From the NCBI GenBank assembly GCA_965223415.1, contig OZ245002.1, positions 1,696,001-1,760,000 on the forward strand: a DNA stretch of 64,000 bases, given 5' to 3'. Below the pieces are notes generated by a model, which was given only the letters and a program-made list of their open reading frames with translations, ran no database searches and was not told the DNA's origin. The stretch comes from Myxococcota bacterium (lineage in GTDB: Bacteria; Myxococcota_A; UBA9160; UBA6930). Below, piece by piece: positions 18,137 to 34,811 of the stretch. The number at the start of each line of letters is the position of its first letter. The first letter of the stretch is position 1. The translations under genes and the position numbers were made by a program.

Positions 18137-18167
18137 AAGAAACGGGGCCAGAGTTTAGAATTCAGTT
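18137..18167. repeat. Left inverted repeat of the Y1-transposase locus (family A)
   Basis: AAGAAACGGGGCCAGAGTTTAGAATTCAGTT; 29/31 match to the reverse complement of 19099-19129; contains the transposase stop codon. Confidence 0.9.
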
Positions 18168-19028
18168 GTCGGCGAGTTCGACGTCGGCGGCGAGCCGGCG
18201 CCCCCGCTCCACGGCCTGACTGATCGCCGATGGTGTGGCACCGAGGGCCGCTGCCACCAGCCGCCCGGGGATCCCGAGCTCCCGCACGGCGAGGTAGGCG
18301 GCGATCGCGCGGGCCCGCGAGGAGGCGCGGTCCCTCGCTCCGTGGGCCACCGCCTCGGGCGTGGCCCCTGCGCCGCGGCAGACCCGCCCGAGCAGCTCCT
18401 CCAGAGACGGCTCGTCCGTCAGCCGAACGACCCGGGCCCGGGGATCCGGGGTCCATCCGGCCGCCGAGGGATCCGGGGCTCGCGCGACCCGCTCGCGAAG
18501 GGCGTCGCGTGCGGCAAGCGACTCGGGGCCGGCCAGAGCCAGCGCATCCTCGATGCGCTCGAACGCCCGCGGCTCCCGCTTCCCCACCAGCGCCGAGTAG
18601 CTGCTCCACGGCCAGTCGGCGAGCTCCTCGACGGACGTGACGATGCCCGCCTCGAGCGGGTTGCGGCAGACGTAGGCGATCACCCCGAGAAGATCGGCGT
18701 CGTCCTCGATCCCGCGCGACTTGTATCGGCCCTGATTGACGTAGCCCACCCGGTCGTGCCGCCGGTTGAAGGCGCTGGCGTAGCCACCGTTCAGCCGAGC
18801 CATGAAGCGCGAGAGCGGAACCGGCCCGGTGCGCAGCACCAGATGGAAGTGGTTCGCCATCAGGACGAACGCGAAGCAGAGGAAGCCCAGCTCCTGAATC
18901 AGGCGATCGAGCCGCTCGAGGAGGTCGAGCCGGTCCACGTCCGAGTGGAAGATGGCGCGGCGCTCGAGGCCCCGGACCATCACGTGGTGAGCGGTTCCAG
19001 GAGCGTCCCAGCGAGGAGAACGTGCCAT
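18162..19028 (-). CDS. HUH/Y1 tyrosine transposase (RAYT/TnpA-Y1-like) with a C-terminal HTH
   Basis: HHVMVRG...IF, AFVLMANHFHL (HUH), YASAFNRRHDRVG, GRYKS, catalytic YVCRNP, WPWSSY; C-terminal ARAIAAYLA...VAAALGATPSAISQAV resembles a DnaA-C-type HTH. Confidence 0.9.
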   Translation of the reverse strand: MARSPRWDAPGTAHHVMVRGLERRAIFHSDVDRLDLLERLDRLIQELGFLCFAFVLMANHFHLVLRTGPVPLSRFMARLNGGYASAFNRRHDRVGYVNQGRYKSRGIEDDADLLGVIAYVCRNPLEAGIVTSVEELADWPWSSYSALVGKREPRAFERIEDALALAGPESLAARDALRERVARAPDPSAAGWTPDPRARVVRLTDEPSLEELLGRVCRGAGATPEAVAHGARDRASSRARAIAAYLAVRELGIPGRLVAAALGATPSAISQAVERGRRLAADVELADN

Positions 19029-19098
19029 GACGTGCCTCGGGACCGGGGACCGCGAGGCTAGCGGCCCGCGAGGATGCAAGCGAGCTCCCCGCCGCCGT

Positions 19099-19129
19099 AA
19101 CTGAATTCTTGACTCTGGCCCCGTTTCTT
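19099..19129. repeat. Right inverted repeat of the Y1-transposase locus (family A)
   Basis: AACTGAATTCTTGACTCTGGCCCCGTTTCTT; its last base is part of the nuoN TAA. Confidence 0.9.
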
Positions 19130-20613
19130 TATCTGGCGAGGGCGGCGATGGATTGGTGGGTCCAGTCGAGGAGGGGGAGCCAGGTGAAGGTGCCGGGGGC
19201 GAGGCCCAGGAGGAGCACGCCGGCGGCGCAGCTGGTGAGCACGGCCAGCTCGAGGAAGTCGAGCTCGCGGCGGTGGGGGCGCTCGCGGCGCGGGCGCATG
19301 TACATCGCGATCGGCAGGCGCAGGTAGTAGTAGGCGGAGACGACGCTCGTCACCGCCAGCAGCAGGGCCAGGGGCAGCTGGCCCGCGCTCACGGCGGCCA
19401 GGAAGATCTGGAGCTTGCCCATGAACCCGGCGGTGCCGGGAATGCCGGCGAGGGACAGCATGAAGAGCACCATCAGCGCCGCCAGCCCGGGGCGCCGCTT
19501 CGCCAGGCCGTCGTAGTCCTCGAAGCGGTCGGCCTCCTCGCCACGATGGGTGAGCGAGATCATCACGGCGAAGGCGCCGAGGGTCCCGAACACGTAGGCG
19601 GCCAGGGTGAAGAGGAGCGCCGCGCGGCCGTCGGCGGTGCCGCCGGCCAGGGGAACGAGCAGGTAGCCCGCATGCGCCACCGCCGACCAGGCGAGCATGC
19701 GCTTCACGTTGGCCTGGATCACGGCCATCATGTTGCCGACGATCATGCTCGCCACCGCGAGGGCCGCGAGCACTGCGTCGAGATCCGCCACGCCGCCGAA
19801 CGCCTGGGCCAGCACCCGTAGCAACGCCGCGAAGGCGGCGACCTTCACGGTGACGGCCATGAACGCCGTCACCGCCGTCGGCGCGCCTTCATAGACATCC
19901 GGCGTCCACTGATGGAAGGGCACCGAGGAGGTCTTGAAGGCGAAGCCCACCAGCACGAGCGCCACACCCGCCACCCCCAGCGGATCGCCGGGGGTGAGGC
20001 GCTGCGCGAGCGCGTCGTAGTGCGTGGCACCGGTCGCGCCGTAGACCAGGGCCATCCCGTAGAGCAGGAGCGCCGTCGCGAAGGACCCGGTGACGAAGTA
20101 CTTGAGGGCGGACTCGTTGCTGCGCAGCTTGCCCCGGTCGAAGCCGGCCAGCACATAGAGGGGAATCGACGCGAGCTCGATGCCGAGAAAGACGCCCAGC
20201 AAGTCGACCGCCGAGACGAGCAGCGCCATACCCGCCGTCGAGAGGAGCAGCAGCGCGTAGAACTCGCCGTTGTGGATGCGCAGCTCCTGCAGGTAGCCAT
20301 TCGCCAGGAGACAGGCGAGCAGGGCCGCCAACGCGACCAGGGCGATAGCGAAGTTGGAGAAGCGGTCGAGCCGCAGGAGCGGGTGAGCCGGGTTGAAGGT
20401 CTGCGCCTCGCCGACGGCGAAGCCCTGGGCGGCAATCACCACCACGAGCAGCAGGGTGATGCCAGACACCCCGACCAGCACGCTCCCCGCCCCGCTCTTC
20501 CCCGTGCCTCGCGCGTTCAGGAAGAGCTCTGCGAGCAGTACCGCGAAGGCCCCGATCGCCAGGAACAGCACCGGCAGCACCGCGCCGAGGTCGAGGGACG
20601 GAGTGGGGATCAT
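19129..20613 (-). CDS. nuoN: NADH-quinone oxidoreductase subunit N
   Basis: ESALKYF, FKTSSVPFHQWTPDVYEGAPT, KRMLAWS, SLAGIP. Confidence 0.93.
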   Translation of the reverse strand: MIPTPSLDLGAVLPVLFLAIGAFAVLLAELFLNARGTGKSGAGSVLVGVSGITLLLVVVIAAQGFAVGEAQTFNPAHPLLRLDRFSNFAIALVALAALLACLLANGYLQELRIHNGEFYALLLLSTAGMALLVSAVDLLGVFLGIELASIPLYVLAGFDRGKLRSNESALKYFVTGSFATALLLYGMALVYGATGATHYDALAQRLTPGDPLGVAGVALVLVGFAFKTSSVPFHQWTPDVYEGAPTAVTAFMAVTVKVAAFAALLRVLAQAFGGVADLDAVLAALAVASMIVGNMMAVIQANVKRMLAWSAVAHAGYLLVPLAGGTADGRAALLFTLAAYVFGTLGAFAVMISLTHRGEEADRFEDYDGLAKRRPGLAALMVLFMLSLAGIPGTAGFMGKLQIFLAAVSAGQLPLALLLAVTSVVSAYYYLRLPIAMYMRPRRERPHRRELDFLELAVLTSCAAGVLLLGLAPGTFTWLPLLDWTHQSIAALAR

Positions 20614-22229
20614 CGCCGCTCCAGGGCGGTCTGGATCCCGGGCGTCGCCGGGGGCTCGGCGGTGAGCGCCATCCGCACATCCATCACCCGCAGCGTCTCG
20701 CGCACCGAGGGGTGAATGCGCTTCAGGAAGGTCTCGGGATGAACGCCGATCCAGAAGATGGGGACGAGAAGCGCGACGAGCACCGCTTTCTCGCGGCCAC
20801 CGAGGTCGATCAACCCCCGATTCTCCGCCACCTCGACCGGGCCGAAGAGGACGCGCCGCATCATCCACAGCATGTAGACGGCGGCGAGCACCACTCCGGC
20901 GGTCGCCGCCGCCCCGACGGCGGCGTTCACGCGGAACGTACCCAGCAGGATCAAGAACTCGCCGACGAAGCCGTTCAGCATCGGAAGGCCGATGCTCGAG
21001 AAGACCACCACACCGAAGATCGCTGCGAAGACCGGCATCGGCTTCGCGATGCCGCCGAACTCGGCGATCTCCCGGGTGTGCCGGCGCTCGTAGAGCATGC
21101 CGACCATCAGGAAGGCGGCGCCGGTGCTGATGCCGTGGTTCACCATCTGGAGCACGCTGCCTTCGAGGCCTTCGACGTTCAGGGCGAAGATCCCAAGCAT
21201 CACGAAGCCCAGGTGCGCGACGGACGAGTAGGCCACGAGCCGCTTGACGTCGCTCTGCACCATCGCGACCAGCGCCCCGTAGAGGATGCCCGCCAGGGCG
21301 AGGCCGAAGAAGAGGGGCACGGCCTCCGTCGCCGCGACGGGGAAGAGCGGCAGCGCGAAGCGCAGGAATCCATAGCCGCCCATCTTGAGGAGCACGCCCG
21401 CCAGAAGCACCGAACCTGCGGTGGGTGCCTCGGTGTGGGCGTCGGGCAGCCAGGTGTGCAGGGGCACGAGCGGCACCTTGATCGCGAAGGCCAGGGCGAA
21501 GGCGCCGAAGAGCCAGCCCTGGGTCTGCCACCAGGGCACGCCCGCGAGAGGGACGATCGTGTCGAGCAGCGCCGGAGCCTGGCTCCCGGGCGGCGCCATC
21601 AGGTCGAAGCTCCAGGTGCCGAACTGCTGGGCGTGCATCCAGGCCAGGACGACCAGTGCCACCAGCATGAGGAGCGACCCGAGCATCGTGAACAGGAAGA
21701 ACTTCACCGCCGCGTACACGCGATGAGCACCGCCCCAGATGCCGATCAGGAAGACCATCGGCACGAGCATCAGCTCCCAGAAGACGTAGAACTGCAGCAC
21801 GTTCAGCGACGCGAAGGTGCCGAGCATGCCCGTCTCCAGGAACAGGAGGAAGAAGACGTAGCCGCGCAGCGAGCGCAGGACCTCGTTCCAGGAAGCGATC
21901 AGCACGAGGGGAACCAGGAAGGCGGTGAGCAGGACGAGCATCAGACTGATGCCGTCGAGGCCGACGTACCAGCTGATGCCCAGCGCCGGAATCCACGTCG
22001 TGTGCTCGACGAACTGCATCTCCAGGAGCGTCGGGTCGTAGCGGATCCAGAGCAGCGCTCCGAGCACCAGCGTGGCCAACGAGGCGCCGAGCCCGAGCCC
22101 CCGCCACACCTGGACCGGCACGCTTCCTCCCGCCGCGCGAGCCACGCCGTCGAGGGCGAGGAGCAGGAGGGCCGCCGCGAGCGGAAGGAAGATCACCCAG
22201 GCCAGCAGGTTGGGGAGCTCGGTCACCAC
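20610..22229 (-). CDS. nuoM: NADH-quinone oxidoreductase subunit M
   Basis: FYVFWE, IKVPLVPLHTWLPDAHTEAPTAGS, LLKMGGYG, GFVGEF. Confidence 0.95.
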   Translation of the reverse strand: MVTELPNLLAWVIFLPLAAALLLLALDGVARAAGGSVPVQVWRGLGLGASLATLVLGALLWIRYDPTLLEMQFVEHTTWIPALGISWYVGLDGISLMLVLLTAFLVPLVLIASWNEVLRSLRGYVFFLLFLETGMLGTFASLNVLQFYVFWELMLVPMVFLIGIWGGAHRVYAAVKFFLFTMLGSLLMLVALVVLAWMHAQQFGTWSFDLMAPPGSQAPALLDTIVPLAGVPWWQTQGWLFGAFALAFAIKVPLVPLHTWLPDAHTEAPTAGSVLLAGVLLKMGGYGFLRFALPLFPVAATEAVPLFFGLALAGILYGALVAMVQSDVKRLVAYSSVAHLGFVMLGIFALNVEGLEGSVLQMVNHGISTGAAFLMVGMLYERRHTREIAEFGGIAKPMPVFAAIFGVVVFSSIGLPMLNGFVGEFLILLGTFRVNAAVGAAATAGVVLAAVYMLWMMRRVLFGPVEVAENRGLIDLGGREKAVLVALLVPIFWIGVHPETFLKRIHPSVRETLRVMDVRMALTAEPPATPGIQTALERR

Positions 22230-31260: not shown

Positions 31261-33154
31261 GGCACCGGCTCCCGCCCTGCGCCCGATGCGCCTAGGGCTG
31301 GTGGGCAGCCCGAACTCGGGCAAGACGACGCTCTTCAACGCCCTGACCGGCCTGCGCGCCAAGGTCGGCAACTACCCGGGCGTCACGGTCGAGCGCCGTG
31401 AGGGCACGGTACGGATCGACGGCCGCGAGCTGCAGGTGATCGACCTGCCCGGCACCTACGGGCTCGAACCCATGAGCCCGGACGAGGCGGTGGTGAGCCG
31501 GGTCCTCGCCGGGAAGGTGGCGGAGGTCGCGCCGCCGGACGCGCTCATCGTCACGGTCGACGCCTGCGCCCTGGCGCGCTCCCTGGGCTTCGTCGCCGAG
31601 CTCGTCCGGATGGGCCTGCCCACGTGCCTGGTGCTCACCATGACCGACGAGCTCCGGGCGCGCGGCGGCGAGCTCGACCTCCCGCGCCTGCGGGACGCCC
31701 TCGGCATCCCGGTGTTGGGCGTGGTGGGCCACCGCGGCATCGGCCTGGACGCGCTCCGTCAGCTCCTGGCCGAGCCCCTGGCCTGGGACCGGCCGCCGGT
31801 TCCGCCGCCTGCCGATCCGGAGGAGCGCCACGGCTGGTGCGAATCGGTCCTGGAACGGGTGGTGCAGCGGGCGCCGGGGCGCGATCCGCGGACCGCGGGC
31901 ATCGACCGCGTCGTGCTGCACCCGGTGGCCGGCAGCCTGCTCTTCCTCGTGGTGATGGTGCTCTTCTTCCAGCTCATCTTCGCCTGGGCCTCTCCCGCCA
32001 TGGACGTCATCGATGCGGGCGTGGGGGCCCTGGGCAGCGGCGCCCGCGCCGCCCTGCCCGAGGGCCTGCTGGCGGATTTCGTCAGCGACGGCCTGATCGC
32101 CGGCGTGGGCTCGGTCGTGATCTTCCTGCCCCAGATCGTGCTCCTGTTCGGCCTGCTCTACCTGCTCGAGGACGTGGGCTACATGGCGCGGGCTGCCTTC
32201 GTGGTCGACCGGGCGATGGGACGCATCGGGCTCGAGGGTCGGGCCTTCGTCGCGCTGCTCTCGTCCTACGCCTGCGCGGTGCCGGGCATCATGGCCACCC
32301 GCACCGTTCCCTCGCCGCGCCACCGGCTCGTGACCATCCTGGTCGCGCCGCTGATGACCTGCTCCGCGCGCCTGCCGGTCTACGCGCTTCTGATCGGCGC
32401 GTTCGTCCCGCCCACCACAATGTGGGGCGGGCTCGGCCTCCAGGGGCTGGTGCTGCTGGGCCTCTACCTGCTCGGCGCCGCGACGGCCCTGGTGGCAGCG
32501 GCGGTGCTGAACCGCTTCGTGGTGGAGCCCGCGGCGTTGCCCTTCGTGCTCGAGCTGCCGCCCTACCGGATGCCGCCGCCGAAGCTGTGGGCCTCCCAGG
32601 TTTGGGGCGCCGCCAGCGCCTTCCTGCGCCGGGCGGGCACGATCATCCTGTGCGTGTCGATCGTCCTGTGGGCGCTCCTCACCTTTCCGCGAGCCGAGGC
32701 CCCGGCCGGTACGAGCGCCCCGGAGGCGGCCCGCTACGCCGTCGAGCACAGCGCGGCGGGGCGCATCGGGCGCGCCATCGAGCCGGCGATCGCCCCCCTG
32801 GGCTTCGACTGGAAGATCGGCGTGGGACTGGTGGCCAGCCTCGCGGCGCGCGAGGTGATCGTCGCCACCCTGGCCCAGGTGTACGCGGCCTCGGAGGAGG
32901 ACGAGGTCTCGCTGCGGGCGGCGGTGATCGCCGACGTGGACCCGCGCACCGGCGAGCGCGTCTTCACGCCCGCCACCGTGGCCTCGCTGCTGATCTTCTT
33001 CGTGTTCGCGCTCCAGTGCATGTCGACCCTGGCGGTGATGCGGCGGGAGACCAACTCCTGGCGCTGGCCCGCCTTCGCCTTCGGGTACCTTCTCGCCCTC
33101 GCCTACGGAGCGAGCTTCCTCACCTACCGGATCGTCGATGCCCTCACGACCTGA
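31253..33154 (+). CDS. feoB: Ferrous iron transport protein B
   Basis: GSPNSGKTT, NYPGVTVE, DLPGTY, EDVGYMAR, CSARLPVY, ELPPYR. Confidence 0.96.
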   Translation: MAEAPAPALRPMRLGLVGSPNSGKTTLFNALTGLRAKVGNYPGVTVERREGTVRIDGRELQVIDLPGTYGLEPMSPDEAVVSRVLAGKVAEVAPPDALIVTVDACALARSLGFVAELVRMGLPTCLVLTMTDELRARGGELDLPRLRDALGIPVLGVVGHRGIGLDALRQLLAEPLAWDRPPVPPPADPEERHGWCESVLERVVQRAPGRDPRTAGIDRVVLHPVAGSLLFLVVMVLFFQLIFAWASPAMDVIDAGVGALGSGARAALPEGLLADFVSDGLIAGVGSVVIFLPQIVLLFGLLYLLEDVGYMARAAFVVDRAMGRIGLEGRAFVALLSSYACAVPGIMATRTVPSPRHRLVTILVAPLMTCSARLPVYALLIGAFVPPTTMWGGLGLQGLVLLGLYLLGAATALVAAAVLNRFVVEPAALPFVLELPPYRMPPPKLWASQVWGAASAFLRRAGTIILCVSIVLWALLTFPRAEAPAGTSAPEAARYAVEHSAAGRIGRAIEPAIAPLGFDWKIGVGLVASLAAREVIVATLAQVYAASEEDEVSLRAAVIADVDPRTGERVFTPATVASLLIFFVFALQCMSTLAVMRRETNSWRWPAFAFGYLLALAYGASFLTYRIVDALTT

Positions 33155-34028
33155 GCTCCTCACCTGGCTCGCCTTCGGGCTGCTTCTGCTTCCCTTCCTG
33201 GGCTGCGGAACGAAGTACGCGCGCCAGACGATCCGGGACGACGGCGAGGTCCGGGTCGTCCTGCGCGCGGAGATCAGCGGCGACGCGCGGGTCGAGCAGC
33301 ACTTCCGGCACCCGGCCACCATCTCCAACATCCGCCTGGCCCACATCCTGTCGCGCATCGACGTGCGCAGCGCGGTGGACGACGACGGGGGCCAGCGCAA
33401 GCCGGCCATCGACACCGCGCTCCTGTACGGCCTGGGCGACGTGCTGAGCGAGGCGTTCGCGAAGGCGAAGAGCGACCAGGAGATCGTCGTCGAGGCCACC
33501 CGCAAGGAGAAGCGCCTCGGCATCTTCCACCAGGCCTACATGACGAGCTTCGTCGCCTACGTCGGCGGTGACGACCTGCTCTACCTGCACCTGAACCGGG
33601 TCGACTGGCCGGTTCCAAAGAGCGAGAACACCGAGACCAAGGAGCCCGCCGTAGGCCGCGAGGTCATGCGCTTCAAGGTCATCGCCTCCAACGCCATCGA
33701 GGCCGTCGGCCACCAGGCCGTCGCGGTCGAGTGGCGCGACCCGATCTTCCGCAAGGCCTCCAACATCCGCGTGGGCCCCACCGGCCGCGTCATGCGCCGC
33801 ACCATCCTGATGGGTGAGCCCGAGGAGGCACCGGAAGACGCCCCAGAGCTCCCCGCCGAAGTCATCCCCAGCGACCCGGCGGCTCTCCGCGCCCTCGCCG
33901 AACTCGAAGAGGCCCGCCGAGCCGGCGAGATCACCGAAGCCGAGTACCGCAGACGCCGCCGCGAGCTGCTGAATGAAGAAACGGGGCCGGAGTTAAGAAT
34001 TCAGTTACGCCCCAAGGGGCGTAACTGA
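33138..34028 (+). CDS. Lipoprotein with a C-terminal SHOCT-like helix pair
   Basis: Lipobox FLGC; ELEEARRAGEITEAEYRRRRRELL; the last ~17 codons are read from the palindromic element. Confidence 0.75.
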   Translation: MPSRPELLTWLAFGLLLLPFLGCGTKYARQTIRDDGEVRVVLRAEISGDARVEQHFRHPATISNIRLAHILSRIDVRSAVDDDGGQRKPAIDTALLYGLGDVLSEAFAKAKSDQEIVVEATRKEKRLGIFHQAYMTSFVAYVGGDDLLYLHLNRVDWPVPKSENTETKEPAVGREVMRFKVIASNAIEAVGHQAVAVEWRDPIFRKASNIRVGPTGRVMRRTILMGEPEEAPEDAPELPAEVIPSDPAALRALAELEEARRAGEITEAEYRRRRRELLNEETGPELRIQLRPKGRN

Positions 34029-34055
34029 ATTCTTAACTCCGGCCCCGTTTCTTCA
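33974..34055. mobile_element. 82-bp perfect palindrome; non-autonomous REPIN/MITE-like derivative of the family-A repeat
   Basis: 40-bp arms TGAAGAAACGGGGCCGGAGTTAAGAATTCAGTTACGCCCC with an AA loop; 32/34 match to the extended right repeat of the transposase locus; abuts CTAG 34056-34059. Confidence 0.85.
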
Positions 34056-34811
34056 CTAGAGGTTGCCCTTGTGCTGGCCGCCGTCCACCGCGAGGGTCAC
34101 GCCGGTGATCCAGCTGGCGGGGGCGGAGGCGAGGAAGACGACGGCGGCAGCCACTTCCTCGGCGGTGCCGAGGCGCCCGAAGGGGATCGAGGTGCGGATG
34201 GCCTCGTAGGCCGGCTCGTTGACCTTCTTGATCGTCTCCCACATGCCGCCGGGGAACTCGATGGAGCCCGGGGCGACGGTGTTCACGCGAATGCCCTGGG
34301 GTGCCAGGTTGATGGCCAGCGTCTTCGAGTGGCTCATCAGCGCCGCCTTCACCGCGGCGTAGGCGGGAGGCGAGCCGGCCTCCAGGCCCGAGGTCGACGA
34401 GATGTGGATCACGGCACCGCCACCCGCCTCCTTCATCCACGGCACCACCTTCCAGGTGGCGCGCACCGACGCCATCACGTCCACGTCGAAGCCGGCGGAC
34501 CAGCCGGCCTCGTCGTCGCTCACGCCGAAGCCGGAGGCGTTGTTCACGAGCACGTCGACGCCGCCCAGGGCATCACGGGCGGCGTCGAGAAAGCCGCCGA
34601 GAGCGTCGGCGTCCACCACGTCGCAGGGAGCGGCGTAGGCGCGGACGCCGCGGGACTCGAGCTCCTTGGCCGTCGACTCGAGGGGTCCCTCGCTGCGCGC
34701 GCAGATCGCGACGTTCGCTCCCTCGTCGGCGAACGCCAGGGCCGTCGCCCGCCCGATGCCCTTGCTGCCGCCGGTGATCACCACGTTCCTGCCCGCGAGC
34801 CCGAGATCCAT
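34056..34811 (-). CDS. SDR family oxidoreductase
   Basis: TGGSKGIG, VLVNNA, YAAVK, IRVNTVAPG, VDGG. Confidence 0.93.
   Translation of the reverse strand: MDLGLAGRNVVITGGSKGIGRATALAFADEGANVAICARSEGPLESTAKELESRGVRAYAAPCDVVDADALGGFLDAARDALGGVDVLVNNASGFGVSDDEAGWSAGFDVDVMASVRATWKVVPWMKEAGGGAVIHISSTSGLEAGSPPAYAAVKAALMSHSKTLAINLAPQGIRVNTVAPGSIEFPGGMWETIKKVNEPAYEAIRTSIPFGRLGTAEEVAAAVVFLASAPASWITGVTLAVDGGQHKGNL

Follow-up and report, generated by a model that had tools for sequence, protein, structure and literature searches.

RAYT-like genes, whose relatives are the tyrosine transposases associated with repetitive extragenic palindromic (REP) sequences (RAYTs), are known as TIRtrons where they carry long terminal inverted repeats (TIRs), and their enzymes as TIRYTs (Di Nocera, De Gregorio and Rocco, 2013; PMC3733652). 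Some of the TIR repeats share the motif GGGGWSAS, and moderately abundant families are arranged as dimers (Di Nocera et al., 2013). Among the TnpA-REP enzymes, subclass 2.1 is defined by a C-terminal Bac_DnaA_C/HTH_23/HTH_28-like domain (HTH, helix-turn-helix) and is equated with the TIRYTs; REP-like sequences were reportedly not found near subclass 2.1 genes (Quentin et al., 2018; PMC6006769). REPINs are inverted doublets that form hairpins. Compensatory changes are common in them, and excision products leave about 6 bp behind (Bertels and Rainey, 2011; PMC3116915). The genomic count of the commonest flanking 16-mer serves as a RAYT criterion, with 57 in the REPIN-associated Group 2 and about five for the flanks of housekeeping genes (Bertels et al., 2017; PMC5581495). 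The stretch analyzed here, termed the window, comprises 64,000 nucleotides of a Myxococcota bacterium (GCA_965223415.1, contig OZ245002.1, 1,696,001 to 1,760,000). Its genome, G000, is a single contig of 5.83 Mb with 71% GC, in which the window is G000:C1:1696001-1760000. Positions refer to the window unless a copy or locus of G000 is named. A perfect palindrome of 82 nt without strand is located at 33974..34055, between a lipoprotein gene and a convergent oxidoreductase gene. It is very probably a non-autonomous element of the REPIN type, consisting of two terminal repeats of about 35 nt from a RAYT-like Y1/HUH (histidine-hydrophobic-histidine) transposase that are joined head to head. The repeats are connected by a short, variable, GC-rich tip, and the gene of the transposase in question is located 15 kb away.

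The arms of the hairpin, 33974-34013 and 34016-34055, comprise 40 nt each and are 100% complementary around the 2-nt loop AA, exactly as described in a first-pass annotation of the window. With up to three mismatches allowed, the 40-mer was located at the two arms and nowhere else in the window (0/100 shuffles matched). The 102-nt region folds into a single hairpin with -51.2 kcal/mol as single-stranded DNA (z -16.7) and -81.9 kcal/mol as RNA (z -16.8); none of 200 shuffles was as stable in either case. No inverted repeat was detected inside one arm (seed 9, minimum length 12), and inspection of the sequence revealed no GTAG or CGTC tag at the arm ends. Since the arms have neither a palindrome of their own nor such a tag, the element was grouped with the REPIN-like repeats rather than with the classical REPs. 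All three frames are closed by stop codons on both strands, applying the edge TGA, a TAA about 20 nt in and a TGA in the far arm. The flanks read ...GCTGAA on the left and CTAGAG... on the right, without a direct target duplication.

The hairpin is not a singular event. The proposed genome-wide BLASTN search, performed with short words and combined with a scan for the core motif, identified it as one of 43 complete hairpins of 72-86 nt (lengths include the 8-nt termini), dispersed over various contexts in G000. In addition, the genome has one split pair and a few half or degenerate copies, among which one is degenerate and one carries an internal deletion. Of 45 core matches on the left and 45 on the right, 43 each have a partner with which they form a tight hairpin, and none of the 43 listed copies is flanked by a direct duplication. 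The arms are free of mismatches at position 8 and inward in 37 copies and perfect to the last base in 13. Perfect arms are thus the family norm and say nothing on age, and the initial reading of the perfection as a sign of recent insertion was given up. Two arm variants, noted before as absent from the repeats beside the transposase gene, did not arise in this copy. The consensus of the family reads TTAAG, from which each of these two repeats departs by a single private change, and CCGG occurs symmetrically in 7 of the 43 copies as well as in the repeats of the related genome G005. The tip of the copy at 33974-34055 is the commonest one (5/43); the other four copies with this tip differ from it only in one compensated pair and in orientation. 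Altogether, 34 different tip forms were found in the 43 copies, with 0-5 unpaired nucleotides and nearly always palindromic and GC-rich. Selection, processing of the hairpin tip or slippage are candidate causes for its strong variation in length and sequence. In the copies at 258194, 589085, 2314889 and 3826317 of G000:C1, the inner arm sequence TCAGTT is replaced by a GAAGAAAC-like sequence. This stem segment reuses the end motif of the element itself and may reflect a nested insertion or an internal rearrangement.

Variants at arm positions 8 and inward are mostly symmetric, with 48 symmetric versus 17 asymmetric variant cells in the 43 copies. Position 7 (A/G) is symmetric in 10 copies and one-sided in none, and position 15 (A/G, CCAG to CCGG) is symmetric in seven and one-sided in two. 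Such a pattern would also follow from hairpin-templated copying, i.e. template switching in the quasi-palindrome during replication or repair, in place of a transposase that chooses foldable copies; this was the second alternative of the first-pass annotation and concerns the cause of the arm symmetry alone. The correction of quasi-palindromes is an established source of mutations. One tip type occurs with both A/A and G/G arm variants, which requires recurrent paired changes or an exchange between copies, and the mixed A/G copies at 258194 and 589085 could have been caught midway. In REPINs, compensatory changes are ascribed to selection on the replicating hairpin (Bertels and Rainey, 2011). 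Furthermore, the two repeats that border the transposase gene of G005 both carry G/G at a distance of about 900 nt from each other, and this fits the inheritance of a sub-lineage better than local copying. Templated copying as the source of the symmetry is hence possible, but the case for it is doubtful. It does not exclude selection for a foldable substrate, and sequence alone does not decide between the two.

The symmetry also bears on the boundaries of the REPIN-like element. One-sided variants amount to 10, 20 and 15 at positions 0-2 versus 2, 1, 1, 0 and 0 at positions 3-7, and the outer TGA/TCA triplets differ independently on both sides across the copies. Because the symmetry does not extend to the outer 3 nt on either side, the 76-nt sequence AGAAAC...GTTTCT at 33977..34052 (no strand) may represent the unit that is copied. 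An attempt to derive the insertion boundary from empty sites failed. The relatives, about 75% identical, hold other repeat families or different spacers there, and the element may comprise either 76 or 82 nt.

The only gene flanked by this repeat in G000 encodes a Y1 transposase. It is located at 18162..19028 on the minus strand, starts with an ATG at 19028 that is common to the orthologues (the open frame extends to 19079), and yields a RAYT-like Y1 (HUH) tyrosine transposase of 288 aa. Pfam, NCBIfam, alignment and fold indicate an N-terminal Y1 domain and a C-terminal HTH that resembles DnaA domain IV. The repeat search placed one inverted repeat (AAGAAACGGGGCCAGAGTTTAGAATTCAGTT) 3' of the gene at 18137..18167 on the plus strand and the other 5' of it at 19096..19129 on the minus strand. 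The end of the latter is abutted by the TAA stop (19129-19131, plus strand) of the minus-strand open reading frame (ORF) 19129-22107, a putative nuoN to judge from its membrane-protein sequence. The hairpin arm is identical to the repeat 19096-19129 in 32 of 34 positions at a distance of 14.8 kb, in agreement with the first-pass annotation, whose description of the hairpin as the two transposase-flanking repeats with the gene absent is supported. The commonest 16-mer adjoining the transposase gene has 56 occurrences in the genome, compared to 57 reported for the Group 2 RAYTs (Bertels et al., 2017).

Y1_Tnp of Pfam matches the transposase with 32.1 bits (cut-off 23) and was recovered in 13 of 13 homologues. 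The best NCBIfam match is REP_Tyr_transpos (E 1.3e-16, 60.8 bits). The HUH motif and the tyrosine are invariant in the 13 homologues (H61, H63, Y120 and N124, numbered by the first row of the alignment, which has one extra residue before the methionine); the tyrosine is part of a Y..NP motif. At E<=1, the C-terminal HTH was detected as HTH_23 in nine, as Bac_DnaA_C in eight and as HTH_28 in four of the 13 homologues. The window transposase alone reached 15.2 bits for Bac_DnaA_C (cut-off 31.5), and a profile comparison with DnaA domain IV (2Z4R) gave an E-value of 0.0018 in the C-terminal third, weak but consistent. An AlphaFold model, built from the alignment of 13 homologues, has a predicted local distance difference test score (pLDDT) of 86.6. 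Its best match among solved folds is 4ER8, the E. coli RAYT with a REP hairpin (E 2.8e-6, template modelling score 0.73 on the target), which covers the N-terminal 160 residues or so and ranks above the transposases of IS200, IS608 and ISDra2. A contig search retrieved 16 distant loci with 27-39% identity over the Y1 region and one short segment with 54%. They originate from metagenome-assembled genomes labelled Spartobacteria, Nitrospirota, Kiritimatiellae, Victivallales and Bdellovibrionota and from one Paenarthrobacter; none is close.

A pair of terminal inverted repeats without a gene between them also has the look of a miniature inverted-repeat transposable element (MITE) of a DDE-type insertion sequence, and an inactive relic of the IS200/IS605 type might be considered, as G000 harbors a canonical IS200-like gene at 5490263-5490616 (140.7 bits). 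Either origin is quite improbable. Target duplications are missing at this and the other listed copies, the only repeat-flanked gene is the Y1 transposase with a RAYT as best fold match, and this transposase is single-copy with a closest paralogue of 48% identity. IS200/IS605 elements end in subterminal hairpins, not in long inverted repeats. Quentin et al. (2018; PMC6006769) is consistent with such ends.

The homologous transposases of G000 have repeats of their own. The paralogue L040 (G000:C1:859139-859996) is intact, shares 48% identity with the window transposase and is flanked by the inverted repeats GGGGACGTTCCTTGCATCTTGC; this repeat family forms 44 hairpin pairs from 48 and 52 single arms in the genome. 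L038 (G000:C1:3528118-3528912), also intact with 40% identity, is flanked by GTTAGGGGCCGGTTCCGTTTGTTGC, and its family comprises 4 hairpin pairs from 22 and 20 single arms. A fourth paralogue, L043 (G000:C1:3235891-3236672), matches in two frames (residues 16-116 and 112-286), is apparently frameshifted and has a short flanking inverted repeat left. Three near-alike ORFs (L041, L042 and L044 at G000:C1:4075689, 5825888 and 13756) match Y1_Tnp weakly with about 26 bits. A scan revealed no inverted repeats flanking them, and they may represent a multi-copy insertion sequence of another kind.

The 82-mer family was found in two of the 40 relatives searched, G005 and G013, the former being one of five genomes of the same genus (G001-G005). 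G005 yielded 46 match rows. Since each palindrome appears in two rows, these correspond to about 20 or more places, many of which are located at contig ends. A single place was found in G013. The transposase orthologue of G005 (61% identity) occupies the same junction of a CBS-domain gene and the nuoN-like gene, is collinear over 3.7 kb and shares its contig with the orthologue of the lipoprotein. Its flanking repeats are near-identical to those of G000, and both of them, about 900 nt apart, carry the CCGG variant. In G004 the orthologue (57% identity) resides at the same junction with flanking repeats that have diverged to CGGGGACGGGGTTTACAATTGAC.... In G003 (L080), the transposase gene is missing from this junction and only a solo repeat resembling those of G004 is present, suggesting that the gene was lost and the repeat left behind. 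The hairpin at this junction in G001 belongs to another family. Flanking inverted repeats (seeds of 10-31 nt) were identified at 13 of 14 homologue loci, the exception L051 being cut by a contig end. The homologues elsewhere in the order each have their own inverted repeats, most of which start with GGGG[A/C]C. Insertions common to G000 and G005 were not shown at three further copies, and the two readable G005 junctions hold related but distinct elements.

Further observations concern this junction and that of another copy. A full hairpin copy abuts the nuoN-like gene in G004 (L084, L081). The TAA stop of the CBS-domain gene is situated within the end of the flanking repeat in G005 (L079, G005:C412; CCGT TAA GAATCGGGGCC), unlike in G000, where this gene stops 11 nt upstream of the repeat. 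The gene pair around the copy G000:C1:578788 encloses an extra gene of about 1 kb in G001 (L098/L101, G001:C388) and G002 (L097/L102, G002:C160), the hairpin copy alone in G000 and a 101-nt spacer in G003. Here, a junction that holds a repeat has either lost or gained a gene.

The window transposase and its repeats resemble the TIRtrons in several features. The enzyme is a long RAYT-like Y1 transposase that exceeds the E. coli enzyme and has a C-terminal Bac_DnaA_C/HTH_23-like domain. Its gene is bounded by long terminal inverted repeats with a GGGG-rich start, not by REP hairpins. The dispersed dimer repeats are of moderate abundance, and several genes per genome each have their own repeats. 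The motif GGGGCCAG of the family departs in part from GGGGWSAS (GGGG[AT][CG]A[CG]), of which it fits seven of the eight positions, as do GGGGACGT or GGGGACGG in relatives; one repeat of L062 (GGGGACAC) fits all eight. By its sequence, the element is REPIN-like and belongs to an already described kind, the repeat dimers of TIRYT-type systems; the likeness to TIRYTs and subclass 2.1 is set by domains and flanking repeats. Further differences are the pairing of nearly all core matches as tight hairpins and the reported absence of REP-like sequences near subclass 2.1 genes (Quentin et al., 2018) versus 43, 44 and 4 hairpins in the three co-resident families of G000.

The REPINs of Pseudomonas fluorescens SBW25 are similar as inverted doublets that fold into long hairpins with compensated stem changes and a more variable middle. 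As in the present family, the tyrosine transposase is flanked by the repeats and encoded by one gene copy, the repeats number in the tens to hundreds, and both are inherited vertically. However, the SBW25 halves each hold a short REP palindrome, whereas the halves of the present element are plain inverted repeats with a spacer of 0-5 unpaired nucleotides, and the transposase belongs to the long, HTH-bearing class, unlike the SBW25 RAYT. The E. coli REP sequences, their bacterial interspersed mosaic elements (BIMEs) and TnpA-REP resemble the system in the fold match to 4ER8 (PMC3479197), the conserved HUH and tyrosine residues and the stop codons supplied by the element. E. coli REPs are imperfect palindromes of about 35 nt with a GTAG tag, in contrast to the untagged element with non-palindromic arms. 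TnpA-REP has 165 residues and no HTH domain, compared to 288 aa with HTH here, and the sequence similarity is marginal.

The hairpin affects the gene upstream of it. A putative lipoprotein gene of 296 aa (33138..34028, plus strand; ORF, Pfam and orthologues) encodes a C-terminal SHOCT-like helix; the SHOCT match of 25.2 bits is real, though below the Pfam cut-off of 27. The ORF crosses the left arm and the loop and stops at the TGA of the right arm (34026-34028), with the tail ...ELLNEETGPELRIQLRPKGRN*. Residues 280-296 (EETGPELRIQLRPKGRN) and the stop are encoded by the element. The lipoprotein gains these 17 codons because neither the edge TGA nor the internal TAA lies in its frame. Orthologues of the lipoprotein were recovered from 34 of the 40 relatives. 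The tail is present in none of the 19 orthologous loci read, which include all five same-genus genomes, and the hairpin at the lipoprotein/SDR locus (SDR, short-chain dehydrogenase/reductase) occurs only in the genome of the window. The claim of a rewritten C-terminus is thereby confirmed. Orthologues had been expected to terminate near ELL. Past the RRxLL motif in the SHOCT-like helix, 18 of the 19 continue for 2-10 residues and the remaining one for 21. Since the length past the helix differs among the orthologues, the predicted additional tail is probably tolerated and not adaptive.

The convergent gene for an SDR-family oxidoreductase (34056..34811, minus strand; ORF and domain match) has a TAG stop that abuts the element end, read as CTA at 34056-34058 on the plus strand. 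Its product ends with KGNL*, compared to KGN* in G003 and G004. Both excision models, together with the CAC TAA ends of G003 and G004, point to a former lipoprotein stop TAG at 34057..34059 (plus strand), with an overlap of 2 nt with the SDR stop. A deletion in silico of the 82 nt 33974-34055 produces the ancestor ...ELLN* of the first-pass annotation with its TAG at 34057-34059, overlapping the SDR stop. This ancestor has a competitor, as deletion of the 76 nt 33977-34052 leads to ...ELLNDH*, for which the TAG at 34057 likewise serves as the in-frame stop. The orthologues of G003 and G004, which have retained the SDR neighbor, end with ...TPH* and ...TVH*. The resemblance of ...ELLNDH* and its CAC-stop end to their CAC TAA mildly favors the 76-nt model on sequence grounds; a matching histidine codon would arise by chance in about one of three cases. 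The junction was surveyed in G001, G003, G004 and G005. G003 has another palindrome there, G005 an element that is related yet distinct, and G001 a tract that resembles a repeat; the 16-nt spacer of G004 is bare. As the same junction holds differing elements across the genomes, convergent junctions are recurrent homes for such elements in the genus. The palindrome of G003, a sister species (L022, G003:C153), has about 80 nt, is located between the lipoprotein stop and the SDR stop and reads GAGCCCATCCCAAAACC ... GGTTTTGGGATGGGCTC.

ORFs next to REP sequences often end at a stop codon that the REP terminus supplies (Di Nocera et al., 2013). For the 43 copies of the hairpin family, incoming genes were called as ORFs of at least 60 codons with a GC content of at least 0.8 at the third and below 0.65 at the second codon position. 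By this crude call, 69 of the 86 element ends have an incoming gene, and 28 of the 43 copies have one on both sides. The stop falls into the terminal 8 nt at 40 of the 69 ends and 3-5 nt upstream of the element at 10. An internal stop at +12 after a tail of about 7 aa is used at 12 ends, a stop deep in the element at +38 to +46 at five, the lipoprotein included, and a stop beyond the element at two. The three frames are used about evenly (21, 23 and 25 ends). The canonical edge TGA is kept at 17 of 21 ends when in frame versus 18 of 48 when out of frame (Fisher p 0.0014), a value that is indicative only because the ends are interrelated and the gene calls rough. The edge variants xTAAGAAA, xxTAGAAA and xTGAGAAA mostly give a stop in the frame of the incoming gene. 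Comparison with orthologues confirmed one stop-to-stop case and one rewritten tail of 7 aa. In the former (copy G000 2795447), the element runs exactly from one stop to the other; compared with its counterparts in G004, G001 and G003, the upstream gene lacks one codon. In the latter (copy G000 578788), the minus-strand gene ends with ...VKKRGQS* on codons of the element, compared to ...VRRA* and ...EPAS* in G001 and G002. Selection after the insertion, the survival of well-phased insertions or a preference of the insertion for stop codons could each account for the tuning of the edge stops.

Two simpler models for the element edges were rejected. A one-sided target as in IS608 gained no support. 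The canonical TGA is present at 45 of the 86 element ends, at both ends of 13 copies, at one end of 19 and at neither end of 11, close to the 12, 21 and 10 or so predicted by independence. An outer triplet that represents the host's own stop fits poorly. Frame-2 ends show TA+A in 14 cases versus TG+A in five, while TGA is the commoner edge stop outside the frame-2 ends. This model is also disfavored by the host gene at the copy L004, which is one codon short in comparison with its orthologues.

The position of the hairpins between genes raises the question whether they are kept chiefly for a host function at convergent junctions, as a two-way terminator, a stabilizer of RNA 3' ends or an insulator, with mobility as an incidental property. 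The 28 copies with incoming genes on both sides, the very stable RNA hairpin (-81.9 kcal/mol) and the other elements at the same junction in G003, G005 and G001 would fit. Transcription termination and mRNA stabilization are listed as hypothesized REP roles (Di Nocera et al., 2013). Nevertheless, the stem is followed by CTAGAGG without a T-run, and a scan for terminators and promoters revealed nothing, with 0 terminator-like sites in 33700-34300. No Rfam family reached the threshold in 33500-34500. The highest scores were 55.2 bits for MIR1437 (threshold 168), which reflects generic hairpin similarity, 33.5 for mir-H20 (99) and 25.4 for isrG (100). A host function would need neither a flanked transposase of its own nor a lineage-specific turnover of families, and it is considered unlikely as the main reason for the maintenance of the hairpin.

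A fold-back artefact of the assembly was considered as another source of the palindrome. Public contigs were searched with a bridging rule of 31 letters into the element. In run X1, which may be the source sample, two contigs match 33650-33997 and 34027-34400 with 0 differences and extend 24 and 29 nt into the element, short of the 31 letters. A contig of run X4 covers 34027-34250 with 0 differences. The contigs of X5 and X6, which have small shares, cover either part of the flanks or one arm, and their loose ends resemble other copies. No public contig spans or skips the hairpin; the contigs that enter the arms break inside the repeat. The suggested check of assembly and polymorphism was thus answered in part, by contigs of two samples that enter the arms from unique flanks without a difference. 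The lack of a spanning contig, the one point in favor of an artefact, is expected for a dispersed repeat in short-read unitigs. With 43 similar copies in distinct contexts of a single-contig genome and the same family in the independently assembled G005, such an artefact is very unlikely, to the point of being negligible.

Mobilization of the REPIN-type element may be pictured by analogy to the IS200/IS605 and RAYT enzymes. The element would fold as a hairpin in single-stranded DNA, e.g. at the replication fork. The transposase would cut and rejoin the folded element and paste it elsewhere without a target duplication. Copies would survive where they do little harm, mostly at gene 3' ends and between convergent genes. 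At the present locus, the element would have been inserted at the overlapping stops of the lipoprotein and SDR genes, replacing a native end of 0-2 residues (...ELLN* or ...ELLNDH*) by ...ELLNEETGPELRIQLRPKGRN*.

Several points weigh against this interpretation. Public contigs gave no sign of transposition, of an excision intermediate or of an insertion polymorphism. The copy G000 2795447 replaces the whole stop-to-stop spacer of the relatives and is no simple addition, so that a plain cut-and-paste fails. REP_Tyr_transpos stays below its curated cut-off of 80 bits, the profile search against 4ER8 is weak (E 0.011), and a single-sequence search of the PDB with the transposase returned 0 matches at E<=1. 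The halves are plain inverted repeats and no small REP hairpins, as a classical REP would have. The crude gene calls may include spurious antisense frames, and the 17-aa tail is a prediction from the reading frame.

A wider interpretation is offered tentatively, with less than even confidence. Long HTH-bearing RAYT-like transposases of the TIRYT/2.1 type might run vertically inherited, co-diverging hairpin populations whose edges have been shaped into frame-matched stops, forming stop-to-stop modules at the gene ends of convergent junctions. It is a similarly tentative part of this interpretation that three such systems reside together in G000, that the shaping occurred by selection or by choice of the insertion point, and that the lipoprotein tail is a rare untuned case. 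In the literature consulted, TIRYT and subclass 2.1 transposases are not credited with REPIN populations.

On its own, the hairpin at 33974..34055 is an ordinary selfish repeat, and the change of the lipoprotein is probably neutral. The family, though, is a clean and well-populated hairpin family that is tied to the little-studied long class of RAYTs. The three co-resident transposase/repeat systems in one genome are a point worth keeping. As the transposase is syntenic in three genomes of the genus while its flanking repeats have diverged, the genus represents a natural system for studies on the co-evolution of transposase and repeats. The frame-matched edge stops quantify how repeats coexist with tightly packed genes and occasionally rewrite a C-terminus. 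About 17 of the 69 incoming genes (crude call) end on residues encoded by the element, and annotators should expect such tails.

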